Below, one piece after another: positions 22,804 through 35,008 of a stretch of 39,347 nt of DNA. Positions within the stretch are counted from its first letter, which is position 1. The number at the start of each line of letters is the position of its first letter. Location of the stretch: positions 1 to 39,347 of the IMG/VR virus record IMGVR_UViG_3300006097_000020; one strand, written 5' to 3'. Below the pieces are notes generated by a model. It did not search any database. It worked only from the letters and a program-made list of their open reading frames with translations, and was not told the origin of the DNA. Both the position numbers and the translations under genes were made by a program. This DNA is from a virus.

Positions 22804-23574
22804 TTATTTGCGACCAAAATGTTTTCGCCAATCAACAAAGTGATGCGGACGTCCAAACCGAATTACAACATCTACATACTGTGGCCATACTTTTTGCAGC
22901 ATTTTAGCTTTCAAGAGTTTTTTGTCGTATGAGTTGTTCTTGTAGAGTTCAGTTTGATTACCACCTTTCATTTTGGCAACAGTCGATGTTTTATTTATTA
23001 AATAAAGCTGGCTTGAGGCTGTGATGCCCCCGTTATGCAATACTTGAAGACATAAGTCAACATCCTCATTATACTTAAGTCTCCATCTGTATTTAAGATT
23101 ATTTTTTATCAACAAAGCTGAGTAAACATGACAATTGATTTTAAATGCTTTTCGCGGCGGTTTAGTAGAAAAATATCTGTATTCAAAGCCAGATATATCG
23201 ATATTGTATTTATTAACAAAATCTTCAACGAATACTAAAGCCTCATTATAATCATATATGTTTTTTTTCTTTCCGCCCTGCCATTTGCAAAATCCTCTGA
23301 TGTTGTCATCGAACAACCAGTGATATTTGTGTCCATTTTTTTTTGCATGCTCCCAGCAATAATTCCTTGCAGGATAACTCCCAAGCCCTAAATCAGAAAA
23401 AGGCAATTTTAAAATCTTGCTTGAGTCAATTACTTCTGAATATTTTTTAAATTCATGTGGTTCGACAGCAATTAGATAATCAATTTGATGTTCGTCAAAA
23501 TATCTTGCTGTTATAGGATTATAGTATCGCCCTTTTGATATTACATAGACTGGGTATTTATGCTGACCTGCCAT
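22804..23574 (-). CDS. GT-A-like glycosyltransferase-type protein (tentative)
   Basis: 256 aa. The N-terminal beta-strand YPVYVISKGR, then HWLFDDNI (DxD-like) and later NEDVDL, resemble nucleotide-sugar transferase folds. Overlaps the ParB-like gene by 34 nt. Confidence 0.35.
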   Translation of the reverse strand: MAGQHKYPVYVISKGRYYNPITARYFDEHQIDYLIAVEPHEFKKYSEVIDSSKILKLPFSDLGLGSYPARNYCWEHAKKNGHKYHWLFDDNIRGFCKWQGGKKKNIYDYNEALVFVEDFVNKYNIDISGFEYRYFSTKPPRKAFKINCHVYSALLIKNNLKYRWRLKYNEDVDLCLQVLHNGGITASSQLYLINKTSTVAKMKGGNQTELYKNNSYDKKLLKAKMLQKVWPQYVDVVIRFGRPHHFVDWRKHFGRK

Positions 23575-24104
23575 GCCTGTCCTTGTTTTTTAGCATTTAT
23601 ATTATACTTTTTTAAATATCTTTCAGCAGCATCTTTGTTTTCAAAAATAAAAACGACTCTTTGAACGTCTGTTTTTGCACCAATTTCTCTAAGTTCTTCT
23701 TCATCTAACAGAATATCATCTTCTGACATTTCATTAGCATTATTCCATATACTAACATCTACGCCCCACTGATTAATCTCATCTACATTCCACTCAGATC
23801 TGATCATTTCCCAATCCCATTCCCCAAAATTTTCATTGTCGATTAAAATAAATCGACGTTGTTCTTCTTCTGTTAATTCTGATGCCTTCTTTATCCAGGT
23901 ATCAGGAATTTCTTTATATCCAAGATCAATTAAAGCCTTTAGCCGCTGATTGCCGCCTAATATCATATTATTATCGTCGACAACAATTGGCCTTAGGGCC
24001 ATCATTTTTGGAAATTCCGCAATAGATTTCTTTAATTTTTTAAATCTTTCATCTCTGATAAATCTCGGATTATCAGGATTTGGTTTTAAGTCTGAAATTT
24101 TCAT
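23541..24104 (-). CDS. ParB N-terminal (ParB/Srx) domain protein
   Basis: 187 aa. ISDLKPNPDNPRFI ... PIVVDDNNMILGGNQRLKALIDLG is the ParB-like nuclease/CTP-binding domain signature. Confidence 0.7.
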   Translation of the reverse strand: MKISDLKPNPDNPRFIRDERFKKLKKSIAEFPKMMALRPIVVDDNNMILGGNQRLKALIDLGYKEIPDTWIKKASELTEEEQRRFILIDNENFGEWDWEMIRSEWNVDEINQWGVDVSIWNNANEMSEDDILLDEEELREIGAKTDVQRVVFIFENKDAAERYLKKYNINAKKQGQAWQVSINTQSM

Positions 24105-24105
24105 C

Positions 24106-24279
24106 TCAAATGCATTCTTTTACGAAAAACAGGAATAAGACTAAAAACATTATCAAATTTACAATTCTATTTAGCCATTTCCAAATTTTTACGTTTTGTC
24201 TCTCGGTTTTGAGAGATACTCGGCGATGTGTATCTCTTATCATATCGCCGACTGTTGGAATCTCTTTGTTTGTTTTCAT
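24106..24279 (-). CDS. Small tail-anchored membrane protein (start trimmed to MKTNKE)
   Basis: The track ORF 24106..24357 has an N-terminal extension that is simply the translated 56-nt repeat block. The ATG at 24279 follows that block. C-terminal TM helix IVNLIMFLVLFLFFV. Confidence 0.45.
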   Translation of the reverse strand: MKTNKEIPTVGDMIRDTHRRVSLKTERQNVKIWKWLNRIVNLIMFLVLFLFFVKECI

Positions 24280-24285
24280 GGTTTT

Positions 24286-24341
24286 TTTATTTAACGATAA
24301 TTTATTATGCATCATTGACGCTATATATGTGTTATGCCTCA
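24286..24341. repeat. 56-nt intergenic repeat block, copy 1 (partner at 28014..28069)
   Basis: tttatttaacgataatttattatgcatcattgacgctatatatgtgttatgcctca matches the partner at 51/56 positions by hand alignment. Both copies sit immediately 5' of a small-gene start codon. Confidence 0.85.
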
Positions 24342-24580
24342 GCTTCAAAAACATCAATGCTTACAAAGGCTTCTTTTCTCAAGTATATTCCGTTTGTATA
24401 TTGATGTAAGAAACTGATTTGTTCATCCTTAGTCATTTTTTTAGATGATTTAAAGAAGCCTGTGCCAACAGTTCTACCGTTCTGTTTACTTGTAACCGAA
24501 AATCTATAACCAAAAGCCGAAGGCATAACACCGTGTATAGTGCATGGCTCGGTTTGTGTTTTATTTGATGTATTTTCCAT
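24332..24580 (-). CDS. Hypothetical protein
   Basis: 82-aa ORF. Its 5' end carries the recurrent TATACACGGTGTTATGCC motif, and its stop codon lies inside the 56-nt repeat block. Confidence 0.45.
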   Translation of the reverse strand: MENTSNKTQTEPCTIHGVMPSAFGYRFSVTSKQNGRTVGTGFFKSSKKMTKDEQISFLHQYTNGIYLRKEAFVSIDVFEAEA

Positions 24581-25480: not shown

Positions 25481-25510
25481 GTTGGCAGCACATTAAAACG
25501 ATTGCACAAC
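25481..25510 (-). repeat. Intergenic hairpin, family copy A (loop ATTAAAACG on the plus strand)
   Basis: gttggca(25481..25487) pairs with tgc-a-caac (25503..25510) with one bulge. The loop contains attaaaacg. Flanking sequence 25491..25578 is about 77% identical to copy B by hand alignment. Confidence 0.7.
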
Positions 25511-25573
25511 ATGCAATATAAAACATGCTTAGCGTCGTGCTTCGTAGTATCGTTTGTGCTAAATTCACCATAA

Positions 25574-25993
25574 TTAAATTTTTTCTTTACCCACGCTCTC
25601 AAAATAGAATATTCCGTCAAATGGCTTTGTTGGAGTAATTCCAAAATATGAAGCCACTTTATTTAAATATTCCTTTTTGCGTTTAGATTTTTCAGTTCTT
25701 GGATTCTTTGGTTTATCCAATCTTTCGTGCAATCCGCCTAAAAACCAAGTTCTAAATGTTTCCAAGTCTAAAGACCCTTTATAGTGGTTAATTATTTTCT
25801 GTACAGGCACAAGATTTTCATCACAATGAGCATCAGGAAACATTGAAGTTCCATCCCACCAATTTCTAACAAGTGGCTTTATATGTTCAACTTGCCAATC
25901 ATCTTCAAGTGGCGTTCCTGAATAAGCACAAAGCCCACCAAACTTTTGCTTAATTTCTTCTCTTTGTTTTTTACTGATATATCCCACACTCAA
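25574..25993 (-). CDS. HNH endonuclease
   Basis: 139 aa. GGLCAYSG...WQVEHIKP...DENLVPVQKIINHYK gives the His-Asn-(His/Asn) beta-beta-alpha-metal signature. The track start is a TTG, so the true start is uncertain. Confidence 0.65.
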   Translation of the reverse strand: MSVGYISKKQREEIKQKFGGLCAYSGTPLEDDWQVEHIKPLVRNWWDGTSMFPDAHCDENLVPVQKIINHYKGSLDLETFRTWFLGGLHERLDKPKNPRTEKSKRKKEYLNKVASYFGITPTKPFDGIFYFESVGKEKI

Positions 25994-26056: not shown

Positions 26057-26095
26057 GGCATAACATTGTGTATAAGAAATAGGGGCTGTTGTGCC
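26057..26095 (-). repeat. Intergenic hairpin using the same GGCAyAACA / TGTTGTGCC arms (copy G)
   Basis: ggcataaca (26057..26065) and tgttgtgcc (26087..26095) form a 9-bp stem (one G:U in RNA) around a 21-nt loop that contains TATA. Confidence 0.6.
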
Positions 26096-26995: not shown

Positions 26996-27415
26996 TCATG
27001 ATTTCTGATATTTATTGATTATTTTAACAATTTCAAAATGTCTGGAAGGAATGGTTTTTTTTGTTAACAAGATATATCGATTTTGATTTTCGAAAATTTT
27101 ACCATGCCAACGTGGTTTGTCATTAATTAAGTAGATTTCTTTCATAAAGACTTTTCCAAGAAAACGTTCTATGCAGGCGCCTTTTGATTGTTTCCAGTCC
27201 GGGATCAATAACACTTTGTCAGATTTCAAAACGTTAAAGAAAGCAGGTATCATATAGAATAACCACCTTTTTATTCCTAAGAAAGGCTTAACATAGATAG
27301 GGTTTATAATTTTTACACGACCAAAATCTTTTCGAATTCTGGCTTCGTAGGAGACAAATTTGGTTATGTAGTTTTCATCTCCACTTATTTTCCCTGAAAT
27401 GTAAATTGTTTTCAT
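26996..27415 (-). CDS. DUF4406-like (nucleoside 2-deoxyribosyltransferase-like superfamily) protein
   Basis: 139 aa. MKTIYISGKISGD ... INP ... LKSDKVLLIPDWKQSKGACIE follows the DUF4406 pattern (iYisGpitG ... NP ... cD.v..l.gW..S.Ga..E). Confidence 0.5.
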   Translation of the reverse strand: MKTIYISGKISGDENYITKFVSYEARIRKDFGRVKIINPIYVKPFLGIKRWLFYMIPAFFNVLKSDKVLLIPDWKQSKGACIERFLGKVFMKEIYLINDKPRWHGKIFENQNRYILLTKKTIPSRHFEIVKIINKYQKS

Positions 27416-27839: not shown

Positions 27840-28007
27840 TTAATGTTCTTTGTTTTTAGGACTTAAATACTTCTCAGGACACTGTCCTAATTCGTATAAC
27901 CGACAAATGTTTGTCCCGTTGCCGCTAAACGGCACAAAACATTCTCTTTTTCTGCATTTATCAGAAAGAACCAAATACTCTTTTTTGTTGTATCTTATTG
28001 TAGCCAT
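27840..28007 (-). CDS. Small Cys-rich protein (start trimmed to MATIRY)
   Basis: The 47 N-terminal codons of track ORF 27840..28148 are the translated intergenic repeat (copy B plus the 56-nt block). The ATG at 28007 follows the block, as at 24279. Confidence 0.45.
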   Translation of the reverse strand: MATIRYNKKEYLVLSDKCRKRECFVPFSGNGTNICRLYELGQCPEKYLSPKNKEH

Positions 28008-28013
28008 AATTTC

Positions 28014-28069
28014 TTTATTTAACAATAATTGATTATGCGTCATTGACGCTATATATGTGTTGTGCTTCA
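28014..28069. repeat. 56-nt intergenic repeat block, copy 2 (partner at 24286..24341)
   Basis: tttatttaacaataattgattatgcgtcattgacgctatatatgtgttgtgcttca. Contains the perfect 13-bp palindrome gcgtcattgacgc at 28037..28049. Confidence 0.85.
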
Positions 28070-28097
28070 TTAAAACGAAAGCACAACATGGTATATA
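28050..28097 (-). repeat. Intergenic hairpin, family copy B (longest stem)
   Basis: tgttgtgctt (28058..28067) pairs perfectly with aagcacaaca (28079..28088). The loop is cattaaaacga. Outer tatata arms (28050..28055 and 28092..28097) can extend the stem. Confidence 0.75.
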
Positions 28098-28151
28098 AGC
28101 CATGCTTAGGTCTGTGCTTCGTAGTGATGTTTGTACAAACTTGCCCATAAT

Positions 28152-28901
28152 TTAAAAAGCCCCTCCCGCTTCGGTTTTTTCAAAACCGTTTGGTATAAGT
28201 TCTGTAAGCAATTCACGTTCCTGTGTAAAAATAGGTGGTTCTGTACTTACCCATCTTGTTCTCAATGCACCGTTCTTCTCGTATTGTTCCTTTACAATTA
28301 ATCTACCCCGTTTAAGTTTAGGTTCATAATCGTTCCAGTTAATACCTTTTTGAAAACACATTTCTTGCATTTCACCTATGTCTTTTCCGTGCAATTCTCT
28401 TGGGCTATATAGGTATTGTGCAACGCTACTAATACTATTCCTTATTGTGTCTTGCTGTCTCCAAATCAAGTAATTCTCAACTTCAACGGCTGTTGGTATT
28501 GTAAACACACGGCTGTCAAATAAAGCAATCTTATTTGGTCGTAATTCATTAAATTTTGCAGTTGCCATACTTGCACTTATACTTGCCATTTTTTGTATAT
28601 TTCCATCAAACCAAGCATTAGTACCTAATTTTTCAAAATCAGTAAGTAAAATACTTATTTCATCACTTTGCACAAATGCCAATTTTGCTCCCTGAATATT
28701 CTTGCACATATAGCAAGCAGTTTCATCCATATCTGAAATTAGTTTTGCATCAAAAGGTCTCTCAAGCCCTCTTGTGTAAGTATGAAATGCTTTGCCATCT
28801 ACACGTATAATTGTGTACGTTCTTCTTGGGAGTAAGCTTCGAGTTCTATTTTCGTAAAACTCCTTCATTCTATCTCCTAAGCTATCTTTTTTATTTGCCA
28901 T
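28152..28901 (-). CDS. Thg1-like protein (tRNA-His guanylyltransferase family, 3'-5' nucleotidyltransferase)
   Basis: 249 aa. MANKKDSLGDRMKEFYE...YTIIRVDGKAFHTYT...AFVQSDEISILL reproduces the Thg1/TLP N-terminal palm motifs (RxDGxxFH and SDE carboxylates). Confidence 0.7.
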   Translation of the reverse strand: MANKKDSLGDRMKEFYENRTRSLLPRRTYTIIRVDGKAFHTYTRGLERPFDAKLISDMDETACYMCKNIQGAKLAFVQSDEISILLTDFEKLGTNAWFDGNIQKMASISASMATAKFNELRPNKIALFDSRVFTIPTAVEVENYLIWRQQDTIRNSISSVAQYLYSPRELHGKDIGEMQEMCFQKGINWNDYEPKLKRGRLIVKEQYEKNGALRTRWVSTEPPIFTQERELLTELIPNGFEKTEAGGAF

Positions 28902-28997
28902 CGCTTCGCTTTTTAAATTATTACTGTTGTTCTTTGTAGTTAGGTTTGTTGGTTAATCCGCACAGCTCATATACCTGTCCGTTAGAAACAAGCTCCG

Positions 28998-29879
28998 TCA
29001 TTCACATAAATGATAGTAGCTTGAACATGAAATAGGGCTGTCCTCTGCGAATAAATCAATAGTCGCATTTTTAGCTTCTAAATATCGTTTAACATCTTCG
29101 GCGGTTGTGTATTTTTTCGCAGTTCTTTTGCATACACCTGACTGGCTGTGTTCAGGTACAAAGTCAATTTTAAAGAAAGAGGAACCTATTCGCTTTTCAT
29201 GCTCAATAATTTCATCAAACTTTTTCGGGTATCGCTTTAATATTTCGTAAACTTCACGATGCCCTGACATAATGCAAGGGAAACAACCAACTCGCTTAAA
29301 CCCTTCTTTGTAAAGCGTATTAGGTTTCTGACCGTTTTCAATAATGTAATCAATAACTTCCTGACCAGACCAGTTGAAAATTGGTCTTAAAATGTCATCA
29401 GAGTATTCCTCACACCACATTTTCACATCTTTTTTTCTGTATGTATGCGTTTTGCCATTGTCATTATACGGTTCAAAATAGTATTTAAAATACCTGCATT
29501 GTCGCTGCATTAAACTTCTATTATGGCTTTCCTGCGCTCTAATTCCCTGTATTATCAACAAGTGTTCTTTTTGCTTTAGAACATAGTCAATAAAAGGGAT
29601 AGATTTTAATTCAGAAGTGCAGAACCGGGCCATCGTTGACGGAAATCTTTTTTTCTTTTCTGCCAGGTCAATCATTCCATCGTATTTTTTGCTTTTGACA
29701 GTAACAAGTTTTACACCCAATTCAGAAGTAGTTTCTTTAATATGCTTATAGGTAACTGGATGTTCCCATCCTGTATCACAAAATACAGCTTCCACATTTT
29801 TAGCACCGTATTTTTTGACCGTCCACAAAAGGCAGGCTTGTGAATCCTTACCTCCTGAATATGCTACTAATATTTTCAT
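28998..29879 (-). CDS. PP-loop ATP pyrophosphatase, PAPS reductase / DndC-like family
   Basis: 293 aa. MKILVAYSGGKDSQACL (SGGxDS PP-loop), FCTSELKSIPF, GIRAQESHNR and RVGCFPC (similar to the DndC-type GCWxC). Confidence 0.7.
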   Translation of the reverse strand: MKILVAYSGGKDSQACLLWTVKKYGAKNVEAVFCDTGWEHPVTYKHIKETTSELGVKLVTVKSKKYDGMIDLAEKKKRFPSTMARFCTSELKSIPFIDYVLKQKEHLLIIQGIRAQESHNRSLMQRQCRYFKYYFEPYNDNGKTHTYRKKDVKMWCEEYSDDILRPIFNWSGQEVIDYIIENGQKPNTLYKEGFKRVGCFPCIMSGHREVYEILKRYPKKFDEIIEHEKRIGSSFFKIDFVPEHSQSGVCKRTAKKYTTAEDVKRYLEAKNATIDLFAEDSPISCSSYYHLCE

Positions 29880-29966
29880 AAAAATTTGATTTTAATTTGG
29901 CCGCCAGTTTCTAACAAGCGGTCATAAACAACTCCGCTACGCTCCGCAGTTCATACCGCCAGCCCG

Positions 29967-30581
29967 TTAGTGGCAATTAAAGTACAGGTCAACTTGTTGC
30001 TTCTCGCTTTGTATGCCAATGTCGGTGTAACTTACATTAGGTTTTTTATCTATGTCGGCTTTAAAACAGCATGGTATATTTACCAAATGTATTTCCGAAT
30101 ATCCGTGTAGCATTTTAAGGCAGTCGCTTATTTTAGCGTGTGAGTGTACACAAACAACCACCGCACTATTATTTTCTCCTTCAAATGTTAATTCTTCTGC
30201 TTTGTTTTTATATGTTTCTAAGCGTTTAATATTCCATTGTTTCTCCCGCATTTGTGGGTCTATGCTTTTAACATTCCATTTCGTCAAGCAAGCTATTAGC
30301 GCACCTGTCCGTGGGCTGTGTCCATCACCTACTACATACACATCAACATCGTCAGTACGGCTTACATATTTATCAATTAGGTGGTCTTGTATTGCCACAA
30401 ATGCTCCCACACTCTCGGTTATTTCTTTAATATTCGGAAATACTTTCGCGCTCATTAGCAACGGGGCGGTATTCATTTTAAAAAACCTATGTAAATATCG
30501 GTTGTCATAGAAATAACTGCCACTAACACCGTGTAATACGGCATTGCCTTGTGGCTTTTTTGTTACTGTATCTGTATTCAT
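29967..30581 (-). CDS. Rossmann-fold methyltransferase-like protein (uncertain)
   Basis: The track start at 30602 is a TTG. The first ATG (MNTDTV) is at 30581. VDVYVVGDGHSPRTGALIA...SIDP resembles SAM-binding motif I and the post-I acidic residue. VVCVHSHA...PCC follows. Confidence 0.35.
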   Translation of the reverse strand: MNTDTVTKKPQGNAVLHGVSGSYFYDNRYLHRFFKMNTAPLLMSAKVFPNIKEITESVGAFVAIQDHLIDKYVSRTDDVDVYVVGDGHSPRTGALIACLTKWNVKSIDPQMREKQWNIKRLETYKNKAEELTFEGENNSAVVVCVHSHAKISDCLKMLHGYSEIHLVNIPCCFKADIDKKPNVSYTDIGIQSEKQQVDLYFNCH

Positions 30582-30646
30582 ATCTTTAGTTCTTTTAATC
30601 AAATTTGTACTGTATTTAAAGCGGCAACGACCGCATACACAAACCG

Positions 30647-31429
30647 TTATGCGCCATGCCGAAAGACCAAGATACTTTCGTGTTGCACCCTGCTTTTTGC
30701 ATTTTGCCCGAAACCCATTCTTGGAGTTTCGATTTTAATTTCATCAATAAGTTTCATTCCAAAATCTAACAATGTTTGTTTATGCCAATCAACCACGTTT
30801 ACAATTTGCCCTTTTCTAATATGGTCAGAAACATTCACAATCATCAATCCATTTGGCTTTAATACGCGCAAACATTCCTTGTAAATCTCAATATGCTTTT
30901 GTCGGTACTTTACACCCCATTGCATCCTTCCAGTATTCTCTTCATTTAATGGTCTTCCCAAGAAATGTCTGTAAGTAATGCGCTTGCTTCCATCTTTCGC
31001 TTCAAAGTGGTCTGCCATTCTGTTACCATAAGTAGGGCTTGTACATATAGCATCAAATTCGTGATTCGCAAATTGCAAATTAGCCGCATCACCTATACAC
31101 CATTCATCAACATCATATTCAGACGCATTAACCCATTCAGGTTCAATTTCATTGCATACCACTTTTCCGCTAAATCCGTAATCCTTAATAAGAGCAAGTT
31201 TCCCGACACCGCCGAAAGGGTCAAGTACGTTACTACAATCTTTTAGTAATTCCGCAAATTTTGGAATAAAACTATCAGTGTATTTTGCAGGGTGCTTTAC
31301 GGAAGAAGGCACAGGCGCATAACACGTGCTATAAGCAATAGCGGTGTCCGTGTTATCCGAAAGTTCCTGCTTTTTATTATCGTTTGTCATATTATGAAAG
31401 TTTATCGTTTTTAATCCGCTACTGCTCAT
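30647..31429 (-). CDS. DNA methyltransferase (N6-adenine / N4-cytosine type)
   Basis: 260 aa. VLDPFGGVGK (motif I, FxGxG-like) precedes AICTSPTYGN (motif IV, a (D/S)PP(Y/F)-like variant SPTY). LKPNGLMIVNV lies downstream. Confidence 0.65.
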   Translation of the reverse strand: MSSSGLKTINFHNMTNDNKKQELSDNTDTAIAYSTCYAPVPSSVKHPAKYTDSFIPKFAELLKDCSNVLDPFGGVGKLALIKDYGFSGKVVCNEIEPEWVNASEYDVDEWCIGDAANLQFANHEFDAICTSPTYGNRMADHFEAKDGSKRITYRHFLGRPLNEENTGRMQWGVKYRQKHIEIYKECLRVLKPNGLMIVNVSDHIRKGQIVNVVDWHKQTLLDFGMKLIDEIKIETPRMGFGQNAKSRVQHESILVFRHGA

Positions 31430-31456
31430 AGCACCATTCGTTAGAAGTAATAAATC

Positions 31457-34336: not shown

Positions 34337-35008
34337 TCAAATAACTCTGTATTGATTTGATCTAAATGCTTTTTTTACTTTTTCTATATCATCGTTTTTG
34401 TCGTTCTTTTCCCAGGTTCTGACAGCAGCTTTCCAGTCCTTCATCTTATTCTTTCCAATCATCCAGTTTTTTGCTGTGTAAAAGTCGAACCAACGCTCAG
34501 CATCCACATCGTTGTTTCTTTCCTTACAATATTTTTTGACATCATCTAAGGAAGGTGGTGTAAATCTTGGCGTTTTAGCCACACTATTATTCTTTTCATT
34601 CTTTTCATTCTTTTCATTCTTGTTTGTTGTTAGTTGCTTGTTAGTTGCTTGTTGGTTGCTTGTTAGTTGCTTGTTAGGTTGCTTGTTGTCTTCGCCAATT
34701 GCACGATTGTAATTATCATAGTTATAGATAGTTATTAACGAAAATCGATTGTTAGTTTGCCTGTTGATTTCTCCTGTTTTTTCTAATTTTTTTAAACAAG
34801 ACCTTAATGTCTGAATTGAAATATTTGTTTCTTCATGAAGTTGCTTCAATCCAGTTATCAATTGCCCTCTTTTAACTTCAATTCCACGCCAGTTAATTGT
34901 TTCGTGATTAGCCTTAAGCAGTAGGTGAACGAATAAGTGTACCATTTCACTTATATCGTACCATTCCCAATCAATGAATTTCCTGTGTAATTTGATCCAT
35001 CCTTCCAT
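34337..35008 (-). CDS. Replication initiator / replisome organiser (winged-HTH N-domain), start trimmed to MEGWIKLHRK
   Basis: MEGWIKLHRKFIDWEWY... followed by a wHTH-like segment (QTLRSCLKKLEKTGEI), a low-complexity linker that holds the iterons, and a C-terminal domain DDVKKYCKERNN...WFDFYTAKNW. The 20 upstream codons of the track ORF are a translated terminator hairpin. Confidence 0.6.
   Translation of the reverse strand: MEGWIKLHRKFIDWEWYDISEMVHLFVHLLLKANHETINWRGIEVKRGQLITGLKQLHEETNISIQTLRSCLKKLEKTGEINRQTNNRFSLITIYNYDNYNRAIGEDNKQPNKQLTSNQQATNKQLTTNKNEKNEKNEKNNSVAKTPRFTPPSLDDVKKYCKERNNDVDAERWFDFYTAKNWMIGKNKMKDWKAAVRTWEKNDKNDDIEKVKKAFRSNQYRVI
34591..34617. repeat. 3 x 9-nt direct repeat (tcttttcat)
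   Basis: Copies at 34591..34599, 34600..34608 and 34609..34617. They encode NEKNEKNEK in the initiator linker. Confidence 0.8.
34631..34686. repeat. Five tandem 11-nt iteron-like repeats (tagttgcttgt)
   Basis: Units at 34631, 34642, 34653 (tggttgcttgt), 34664 and 34675 (12 nt, taggttgcttgt). The period is not a multiple of 3, so the repeat is read in all three frames of the initiator ORF. Confidence 0.8.

Follow-up and report, generated by a model that had tools for sequence, protein, structure and literature searches.

The window analysed in this study is the complete 39,347-nucleotide stretch of the IMG/VR virus record IMGVR_UViG_3300006097_000020, and the element in question is a run of three consecutive minus-strand genes, which encode an orphan N6/N4-type DNA methyltransferase (MTase; 30647-31429), a predicted S-adenosylmethionine (SAM)-dependent transferase, here called the middle protein (29967-30581), and a PP-loop ATP-pyrophosphatase-type protein of the phage 'PAPS reductase' family (28998-29879). 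Sequence comparisons suggest, with a probability that we put at about 0.68, that the region between 28.9 and 31.5 kb, which we view as an accretion zone, has gathered independent accessory genes and does not encode a pathway. Three unrelated accessory genes would have been inserted one by one into the early (replication-side) region, and they probably serve counter-defence. An earlier note on this DNA had described the three genes as a candidate module for nucleic-acid modification. Its gene-level calls (a PP-loop PAPS-reductase-family enzyme, a Rossmann SAM-transferase-like protein, and a DNA methyltransferase) were right, and the three open reading frames (ORFs) are intact and carry the motifs that it quoted; because these motifs are invariant or nearly so across each of the three families, they look functional and are not chance strings. 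The module itself did not hold up, since the families almost never co-occur and close relatives of each gene stand in unrelated contexts. In the early region of a phage, finding three such genes side by side is nothing unusual in itself.

Co-occurrence was assessed in three sets of loci. The first comprised 80 IMG/VR loci with PP-loop relatives (50-80% identity, flanks up to 8 kb, 0.99 Mb), the second 39 loci with the middle gene (0.44 Mb), and the third 80 Thg1 loci (1.45 Mb); the positive controls of the hidden Markov model (HMM) searches scored as expected. When all proteins of the early region were compared with the 80 PP-loop loci by tblastn, the middle gene, the Thg1-like gene, and the TET-associated glycosyltransferase (TAGT) gene were each found at none of them, and an orthologue of the MTase (5.6 kb away) and a ParB gene were each found once. 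The HMM search of the same 80 loci likewise returned no middle gene. Conversely, one of the 39 middle-gene loci (L092) carries a PP-loop relative 3 kb away, and neither the PP-loop gene nor the middle gene was detected by HMM at the 80 Thg1 loci. The trio is absent from all 80 PP-loop loci and was not seen in the 39 middle-gene loci. The closest relatives of the individual genes have neighbours of their own: a 92%-identical PP-loop relative adjoins a Mom-like gene, a second PAPS_reduct gene, and a 'Csf3' gene, an 80%-identical one adjoins an N6_N4 MTase gene, and a 76%-identical one adjoins a Radical_SAM/DUF5131 gene, while MTase relatives at 78-81% identity have neither the PP-loop gene nor the middle gene nearby.

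The middle gene and the 61 nucleotides upstream of it make up a mobile cassette of 677 bp (29966-30642, minus strand), which was delimited by blastn and tblastx against the IMG/VR contig 3300038701_001500 (locus L089). The middle-gene copy of this contig is 96% identical at the amino acid level and 91% identical at the nucleotide level; the homology is confined to positions 29966-30642 of the window and ends at the stop codon, and in this unrelated phage the copy stands by itself on the opposite strand, with head-morphogenesis, portal, and terminase genes around it. Another copy, of 91% identity (L297), is located in a third context. In view of these contexts, the middle gene is a self-sufficient mobile cassette, and because the cassette moves between unrelated phages, the middle protein must work alone on a substrate that is present in any host. 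In the accretion scheme, this SAM-dependent transferase would act by itself, and its spread in the 677-bp form is shown by these copies.

The gaps between the cluster genes are 65-96 nucleotides long, and a junction repeat of about 35 nucleotides, designated J (CTAACGRR..GG...TATGAGCnG..GCGGAtT), is present in three minus-strand copies at the gene boundaries. Copy 1 (31410-31446; CTAACGAATGGTGCTATGAGCAGTAGCGGATT) supplies the annotated ATG of the MTase gene. Copy 2 (29935-29975) contains the TAA that serves as the stop codon of the middle gene, and copy 3 (28952-28987) begins 9 nucleotides past the stop codon of the PP-loop gene. Copies 2 and 3 hold vestigial mini-ORFs of 4 to 5 codons (MNCGA and MSCAD, respectively, each followed by a stop codon) that resemble the 5' end of the MTase gene. 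A narrower set of coordinates for the three copies is 31426-31444, 29951-29970, and 28967-28985. The pattern has zero matches in the 298 other loci that were fetched. We infer that the copies represent a backbone junction sequence duplicated by successive insertions, i.e., insertion scars; alternatively, the repeat may be a regulatory element of early genes.

DNA MTases of different, non-homologous families often adjoin the relatives of the PP-loop gene (C5, N6_N4, Methyltransf_11-like, and ParB-MTase-like annotations). The MTase gene is located two genes upstream in Bacteroides phage BS-TP4 and a Porphyromonas phage, overlaps the PP-loop relative upstream in Burkholderia phage vB_E354, and lies two genes downstream in Serratia phage Parlo and one gene downstream at locus L124; several other IMG/VR lineages likewise have MTase neighbours. 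As scored with a crude regex motif detector in comparison sets that are phylogenetically non-independent, MTase-like ORFs occur within 3 kb of PP-loop genes at 0.24 per 10 kb of flank and at 0-0.05 per 10 kb around middle-gene, Thg1, and TAGT genes. As far as sequence can tell, this pattern supports a shared DNA-modification or anti-restriction theme of the PP-loop family with no fixed pathway. Two candidates for a fixed partner were rejected. The order MTase-hypothetical-PAPS reductase recurs in BS-TP4 and the Porphyromonas phage, and the hypothetical proteins are mutually unrelated and also unrelated to the middle gene. Locus L125 has a Radical_SAM/DUF5131 gene that overlaps the PP-loop gene upstream, and the window has no such gene; the commonest upstream neighbour cluster of PP-loop genes in IMG/VR (16 loci at position -1, 20 loci overall) gave no Pfam matches, has no detectable kinship to the Radical_SAM/DUF5131 gene of L125, and is absent from the window. 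At the two loci with the 92%-identical PP-loop protein (L126 and L127), the second PAPS_reduct gene is shorter (221 amino acids) and precedes the PP-loop gene, the gene matching Pfam 'Csf3' (PF27782) is also upstream, and the Mom-like gene (PF25680) lies farther out, which gives these loci a DNA-modification flavour.

If the three genes did form a cooperative module, they would together install a complex modification, either a phosphorothioate or a base that is thiolated and then methylated, on the phage DNA. The products are all nucleic-acid-type enzymes, the genes are adjacent and co-oriented, the phosphorothioation enzymes SspD and BrxP are the nearest counterparts of the PP-loop protein, and DNA MTases are recurrent neighbours of its family. 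We nevertheless regard such a module as unlikely, considering the absence of the trio from the locus sets described above, the independent movement of the middle gene, and the fact that the neighbouring MTases in other phages differ in family and position. In addition, on present understanding, phosphorothioation needs a DndD/SspC/BrxC NTPase besides the PAPS-domain protein (PMC12914056), and an ATPase of this type, a nickase, and a desulfurase are all absent from the window, where the only ORFs longer than 450 amino acids encode the portal protein (452 amino acids), the tape measure protein, and a 1135-amino acid tail-region protein.

Several points weigh against independent accretion. The loci had flanks of only 5-10 kb, and the co-occurrence counts describe the near neighbourhood and not the whole genome. 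All three genes face the same way; they could still share a transcript, and their products could still act on the same DNA. One jumbo-phage lineage (L122/L123) puts a divergent relative of the middle gene beside a Thg1-like gene, the pattern of repeat J was set post hoc, after the copies had been seen, and the recurrent adjacency of MTases shows a loose functional theme.

The PP-loop protein (28998-29879, minus strand) consists of 293 amino acids and contains the motifs AYSGGKDSQ, IQGIRAQESHNRS, and RVGCFPCIM. Residues 3-203 match the Pfam family PAPS_reduct (PF01507; E-value = 5e-26, 92.2 bits, gathering cut-off = 22.5), and the phrog_424 'PAPS reductase' profile matches at 7e-56 over its positions 161-420 of 460, which means that the N-terminal part of phrog_424 is absent from the window protein. 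Among the PADLOC models, the protein matches BrxP (8e-25), SspD (1e-21, a model for which PADLOC supplies no curated cut-off), and DndC (6e-8); the SspD profile aligns residues 4-233 to its positions 3-206 of 277. Identity to gp41 of phage BS-TP4 is 51%, and a look-up of the window protein itself returned no record. Among 38 close relatives the SGGKDS loop (residues 8-13) does not vary, and across distant phage homologues its conservation is at least 90%. In the family alignment, which reaches the homologues of Acinetobacter, Serratia, and Burkholderia phages (about 34% identity), Cys87 (RFCTxELK), Cys199 and Cys202 (RVGCxPC), and Cys285 are invariant, and at least 90% of the sequences keep Cys292 in the terminal LCE. 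The earlier note had likened the GCFPC pair to a DndC-type motif; the pair is present, but it is not specific to DndC, as it aligns to the Fe-S CxxC of the Mycobacterium tuberculosis APS reductase (7lhr), and the proposed likeness to DndC itself failed against the TIGR03183 equivalog model (21.7 bits, cut-off = 290.4). The four invariant cysteines, including the APS-reductase-like CxxC, are a likely Fe-S site.

The AlphaFold2 (AF2) model of the PP-loop protein has a mean predicted local distance difference test (pLDDT) score of 86.5, and residues 280-293 score below 50, forming a disordered tail that bears Cys285 and Cys292 and reads ...YYHLCE at the C-terminus. In the Foldseek search, the best solved match is the Fe-S APS reductase 2goy (6e-7), accompanied by PAPS reductases, and QueC, MnmA, TtuA, and LarE are found further down the list. 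The solved structure that is closest to the family in sequence is chain C of PDB entry 21fy, which is named 'PptA' (2.5e-7; profile E-value = 2.4e-12); it has FSCGAPS in the place of SGGKDS and NCVGC in the place of GCFPC, and a literature search for a paper on this entry found none.

These structural matches, together with the Pfam assignment and the alignment of CxxC to the Fe-S motif of APS reductases, are what would be expected of a genuine cysH acting as an auxiliary metabolic gene (AMG) that boosts the assimilatory sulfate reduction of the host. Much of the virome literature assumes this role, and phage PAPS reductase is treated there as an AMG (PMC13369170); our searches for experimental work on phage PAPS reductases yielded AMG-type inference only. 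The earlier note had named a grouping with CysH as a ground for giving up its proposal, and the PP-loop protein does not appear to be a CysH, since the curated CysH and APS-reductase models of NCBIfam score far under their cut-offs, at 49 bits for NF002537 (cut-off = 154), 27 bits for TIGR00434 (165), 40 bits for TIGR02055 (235), and 29 bits for TIGR02057 (254). The profile alignments to CysH structures cover profile positions 14-65 and 168-202, and they skip the SGGKDS loop and end at the VG just before the cysteines. The protein also has a family-specific C-terminal domain of about 90 amino acids with two conserved cysteines, and the gene is located among DNA-metabolism genes and DNA MTases. 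A metabolic role in sulfate assimilation is accordingly very improbable in our estimation.

An intact SGGxDS loop in PP-loop enzymes is associated with cleavage of ATP between the α- and β-phosphates and adenylation of the substrate. Based on the intact loop, the probable Fe-S site, and the mobile cysteine tail, ATP-dependent sulfur transfer to an adenylated substrate is the most likely chemistry of the PP-loop protein, by analogy with characterised enzymes. We prefer adenylating sulfur transfer to a CysH role because of the intact PP-loop, the five conserved cysteines, the sub-cut-off CysH scores, and the DNA-methylase neighbours. In the accretion scheme, the protein would adenylate its substrate and transfer sulfur as SspD and BrxP, the nearest relatives with a known function, do on DNA, and it is probably a stand-alone enzyme of counter-defence or DNA modification that uses host sulfur donors; ATP-dependent sulfur chemistry on DNA by the PP-loop enzyme alone is plausible from its sequence.

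The middle protein (29967-30581, minus strand) consists of 204 amino acids when translated from the ATG, a start that is supported by the 96%-identical L089 copy; the alternative start is a TTG at position 30602. It carries VYVVGDGHSPRTGAL, and the conserved motifs of its family are FPNxKExTES, VGDGxxPRTGA, SxDP, VHSHA, and IPCC, with little or no variation at GDG and SxDP. There were zero matches to the protein in Pfam, PHROGs, NCBIfam, and PADLOC, and no match by tblastn against phages. A word-indexed search found just 27 relatives, and an exhaustive profile search found 1703 clusters (50% identity) at E-values of 1e-3 or less, 627 of them at 1e-30 or less, from which the family is evidently large and without a curated model. 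The family occurs on 35 viral contigs, jumbo phages among them, and a scan of 185,579 species genomes found 4 loci, a count that is limited by the search pattern. Judging from these occurrences, the family appears to be mostly viral, large, and unnamed. A 95%-identical middle gene on a 2.2-kb contig of a metagenome-assembled genome labelled Mycoplasma sp. (L293) is probably on a mis-binned phage fragment.

The AF2 model of the middle protein (pLDDT = 91) has a predicted class I SAM-dependent transferase fold, a Rossmann-like type of seven strands in which a G-rich loop follows strand 1 and an acidic residue follows strand 2. In the PDB, Foldseek ranks the SAM aminobutyrate transferases CntL and MtNAS first (5e-5, template modelling (TM) score of about 0.5) and many methyltransferases after them, and the Foldseek probability is 1.0 for SAM-bound CntL, NAS, and methyltransferases. 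In BFVD, proteins of Tupanvirus, Hyperionvirus, Catovirus, and Klosneuvirus are at the top (1e-12 to 2.5e-9, TM score of about 0.7); these are uncharacterised proteins, one of which is annotated 'Methyltransferase'. TRM13-like entries in BFVD match at 4.6e-4. Methyltransf_32 is found weakly in 4 of 54 relatives of the middle protein (best E-value = 1.4e-4), its Pfam threshold is not reached, and the window protein has no match. Matches of 'VVGDG' to Rho/Rac P-loops, obtained when the family profile was compared with PDB sequences, were rejected as spurious (E-value of 0.055 or more). According to the model, a class I SAM-dependent transferase that stands alone and has a distant affinity to Methyltransf_32/TRM13 is the likely identity of the middle protein, and the predicted fold would fit the transfer of either a methyl or an aminocarboxypropyl group.

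The affinity to TRM13 raises another explanation, in which host tRNAs that come under attack from defence nucleases would be guarded or repaired by three enzymes together: the middle protein (as a TRM13-like 2'-O-methyltransferase), the PP-loop protein (as a tRNA thiolase of the TtcA, TtuA, or MnmA type), and the Thg1-like enzyme. The Thg1-like gene adjoins the PP-loop gene, MnmA and TtuA are also in the Foldseek list of the PP-loop model, the middle protein matches TRM13-like viral models and, through its relatives, weakly Methyltransf_32, and the jumbo-phage lineage mentioned above pairs a divergent relative of the middle gene with a Thg1-like gene. Moreover, the best viral relatives of the middle protein are from giant viruses, which are rich in translation genes. 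On the other hand, the 80 Thg1 loci have neither partner and the window has no tRNA genes, the PP-loop model is nearer to APS/PAPS reductases than to tRNA thiolases, the neighbours of the PP-loop family are DNA MTases, and the similarity to TRM13 is under any family threshold, so that a tRNA-directed set seems quite unlikely to us. The Thg1-like 3'-5' nucleotidyltransferase gene (28152-28901, minus strand) is well assigned by the Pfam Thg1 domain (PF04446; 6.7e-27, 94.4 bits, cut-off = 29.2) and phrog_4717 (3e-85); in the window it adjoins the PP-loop gene, and at the 80 Thg1 loci it is unlinked to the PP-loop and middle genes. At 4459-6552 of L122 and L123, a member of the middle family (HMM E-value = 6e-24) is divergently transcribed from the Thg1-like gene at a distance of about 400 nucleotides; the Thg1-like protein of these loci is 36% identical to that of the window, and this is the only other co-occurrence of the middle and Thg1 families that was seen.

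The MTase (30647-31429, minus strand) consists of 260 amino acids and contains the motifs VLDPFGGVGK and CTSPTYGN. It matches Pfam N6_N4_Mtase (PF01555) at 1.1e-11 (45.6 bits, cut-off = 26.7) as well as the Type II MTase models of PADLOC, and it has at least 1798 relatives, typically of about 219 amino acids. Motif I (LDPFxGxGK) precedes motif IV (SPTY), and Asp70, Gly74, Gly76, Lys77, and the Ser131-Pro132-(Thr133)-Tyr134 segment are invariant or nearly so in 27 relatives. Since the annotated ATG falls inside the junction repeat, the true start may be farther downstream. Residues 1-43 make up an N-terminal extension that is missing from most relatives. By its sequence, the protein appears to be an ordinary orphan phage enzyme with an unusual variant of motif IV, and in the accretion scheme it would most likely methylate the phage DNA to evade host restriction.

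The G+C content of the window is 36-38%, and all genes are located on the minus strand. The layout is that of a tailed phage, with tail genes, tape measure, major head protein, protease, portal, and large terminase genes at approximately 3-22 kb, and an early region at approximately 22.8-38 kb that contains ParB-like, HNH, DUF4406, Thg1-like, DnaB, DnaD-like, NinG, exonuclease, and Erf genes. The genome is thus that of a tailed phage of roughly 39 kb. Its host is probably a member of Bacteroidota, because the isolated phages with the PP-loop proteins most similar to that of the window (45-53% identity) infect Bacteroides, Phocaeicola, and Porphyromonas. The neighbours that the earlier note had listed are in place, i.e., the Thg1-like gene, the DUF4406 gene (26996-27415; 3.2e-11), and the ParB-like gene (23541-24104). 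No tRNA genes were found in the window, an Rfam scan of it returned zero families, and megablast of the 28-32 kb region against 50,697 phage records found nothing similar at the DNA level. Promoter and terminator scans were at or below the shuffle expectation, and the sigma-70 model that they used may not suit Bacteroidota.

The ParB-like gene overlaps the TAGT-like glycosyltransferase gene (22804-23574) by 34 nucleotides, and the two occupy 22804-24104 on the minus strand. The ParB protein scores 23.8 bits against Pfam ParB (cut-off = 26.3) and matches several ParB PHROGs at 1e-23, and the TAGT protein matches PF20691 at 1.1e-33. A ParB homologue is directly upstream in 77 of 80 IMG/VR loci with a TAGT relative, usually with TerL downstream. 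Judging from this conservation, the two genes make up a separate pair, placed where the packaging module begins. A link of the ParB-like gene to the PP-loop gene in the style of IbrA/IbrB, to which the earlier note had alluded, is not upheld, since the ParB-like gene is 4.9 kb from the PP-loop gene and belongs with the TAGT gene, with which it is kept in those 77 loci; a ParB homologue is present within 8 kb in only 1 of the 80 PP-loop loci, and DUF3440 of Pfam gave no match. Published phage T-dioxygenase pathways join ParB, glycosyltransferases, and terminases (PMC13229309), and a TET/JBP-type dioxygenase was found neither in the window nor among conserved neighbour clusters. This ParB-coupled glycosyltransferase without a dioxygenase may be the more interesting DNA-modification lead of the window.

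Other repeats were observed outside the three genes. Four copies of the motif GCAYAACAYNRTRTATA, against an expectation of 0.32, lie at 24523-24539, 25504-25520, 26058-26074, and 28081-28097 (plus-strand coordinates) in the small-gene accessory region, and the motif has a hairpin-like CATGG...CCATG core. It sits in longer repeats of 72-88 nucleotides that are 78-85% identical (24270-24341 with 27998-28069, and 25491-25578 with 28068-28155). The motif also overlaps the 5' part of a 102-amino acid ORF (27840-28148), which may in truth start at an internal codon. Tandem repeats of 9 and 11 nucleotides at 34589-34677, in the DnaD-like gene, encode a low-complexity NEKNEKNEK/TNKQL linker.

As ordinary, independently mobile accessory genes, the trio of the window does not merit follow-up as a novel multi-enzyme system of modification. 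Two wider leads come from the individual families. Phage 'cysH' genes are widely reported as sulfur-metabolism AMGs, and their probable mis-annotation affects the interpretation of viromes. The middle gene exposes a large viral family that has no model in Pfam, PHROG, NCBIfam, or PADLOC and yet a confident SAM-transferase fold, which makes it a cheap target for biochemical characterisation. More speculatively, and with a chance that we consider low, the phage 'PAPS reductase' family may be an ATP-dependent Fe-S sulfurtransferase that thiolates DNA, at the backbone or at a base, for counter-defence, either alone or by borrowing the sulfur donors and ATPases of the host, and the middle gene may be the first noticed member of a viral SAM-transferase family that comprises about 1,700 clusters and acts on a new substrate, perhaps by a 2'-O-methylation of tRNA that blocks defence tRNases. 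DNA thiolation, if true, would account for the habitual place of phage 'PAPS reductase' genes beside orphan DNA methyltransferases.

Among known systems, SspD and BrxP are the best defence-profile matches of the PP-loop protein, with which they have the PP-loop fold and the PAPS_reduct domain in common, and Bacteroidota are among the carriers of BREX type 4 systems (PMC12914056). BrxP is a protein of about 780 amino acids with a PAPS-reductase domain and DUF4007, encoded in a brxPCZL cluster, whereas the window protein has 293 amino acids, lacks DUF4007 and the other BrxP domains, and has its best-scoring stretch at positions 134-263 of the 779-position profile. There is no brxC, brxZ, or brxL in the window, and Pfam and PHROG scans of the early-region ORFs revealed no sspB (DUF4007 nickase), sspC (ATPase), or sspA (desulfurase). 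Unlike the genes of the Ssp and BREX systems, the PP-loop gene of the window is phage-borne and stands alone. DndC resembles the protein in the PP-loop, the PAPS-reductase family, and the richness in cysteine; however, the score is low, and the window has neither DndD nor DndE, nor any SMC/ABC-type ATPase.

CysH and the Fe-S APS reductases share with the PP-loop protein the fold, the CxxC, and a flexible cysteine-bearing C-terminus. The P-loop of CysH is degenerate and the protein ends in a catalytic cysteine motif of the ECGLH type, whereas the window protein has the canonical SGGKDS loop, scores far under the curated cut-offs, and lacks an ECGLH-type end, which is consistent with the CysH alignments. 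The middle protein has the class I SAM fold in common with Methyltransf_32 (METTL25-like) and TRM13, along with GDG loop, SxDP, HSHA, and PCC motifs, which we take to resemble the HxCG and CC motifs of Methyltransf_32/TRM13; it is much shorter, lacks zinc fingers, and is under every curated threshold. The MTase agrees with the orphan N6_N4_Mtase enzymes of phages in its above-cut-off Pfam score and in the conservation of motifs I and IV, and differs in that motif I comes first and motif IV is SPTY, not (D/N/S)PPY. The nearest relatives of the PP-loop protein are the members of the phrog_424 family (BS-TP4 gp41, LoVEphage, and the Burkholderia and Serratia homologues), with which it has full-length homology and the same invariant PP-loop and cysteines, although their neighbours vary by lineage and the N-terminal part of the profile is missing from the window protein. 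By sequence criteria, two of the three genes can thus be assigned to known families, N6_N4_Mtase and phage PAPS reductase, with the PP-loop protein as a new member of the latter, and the family of the middle protein is unnamed.

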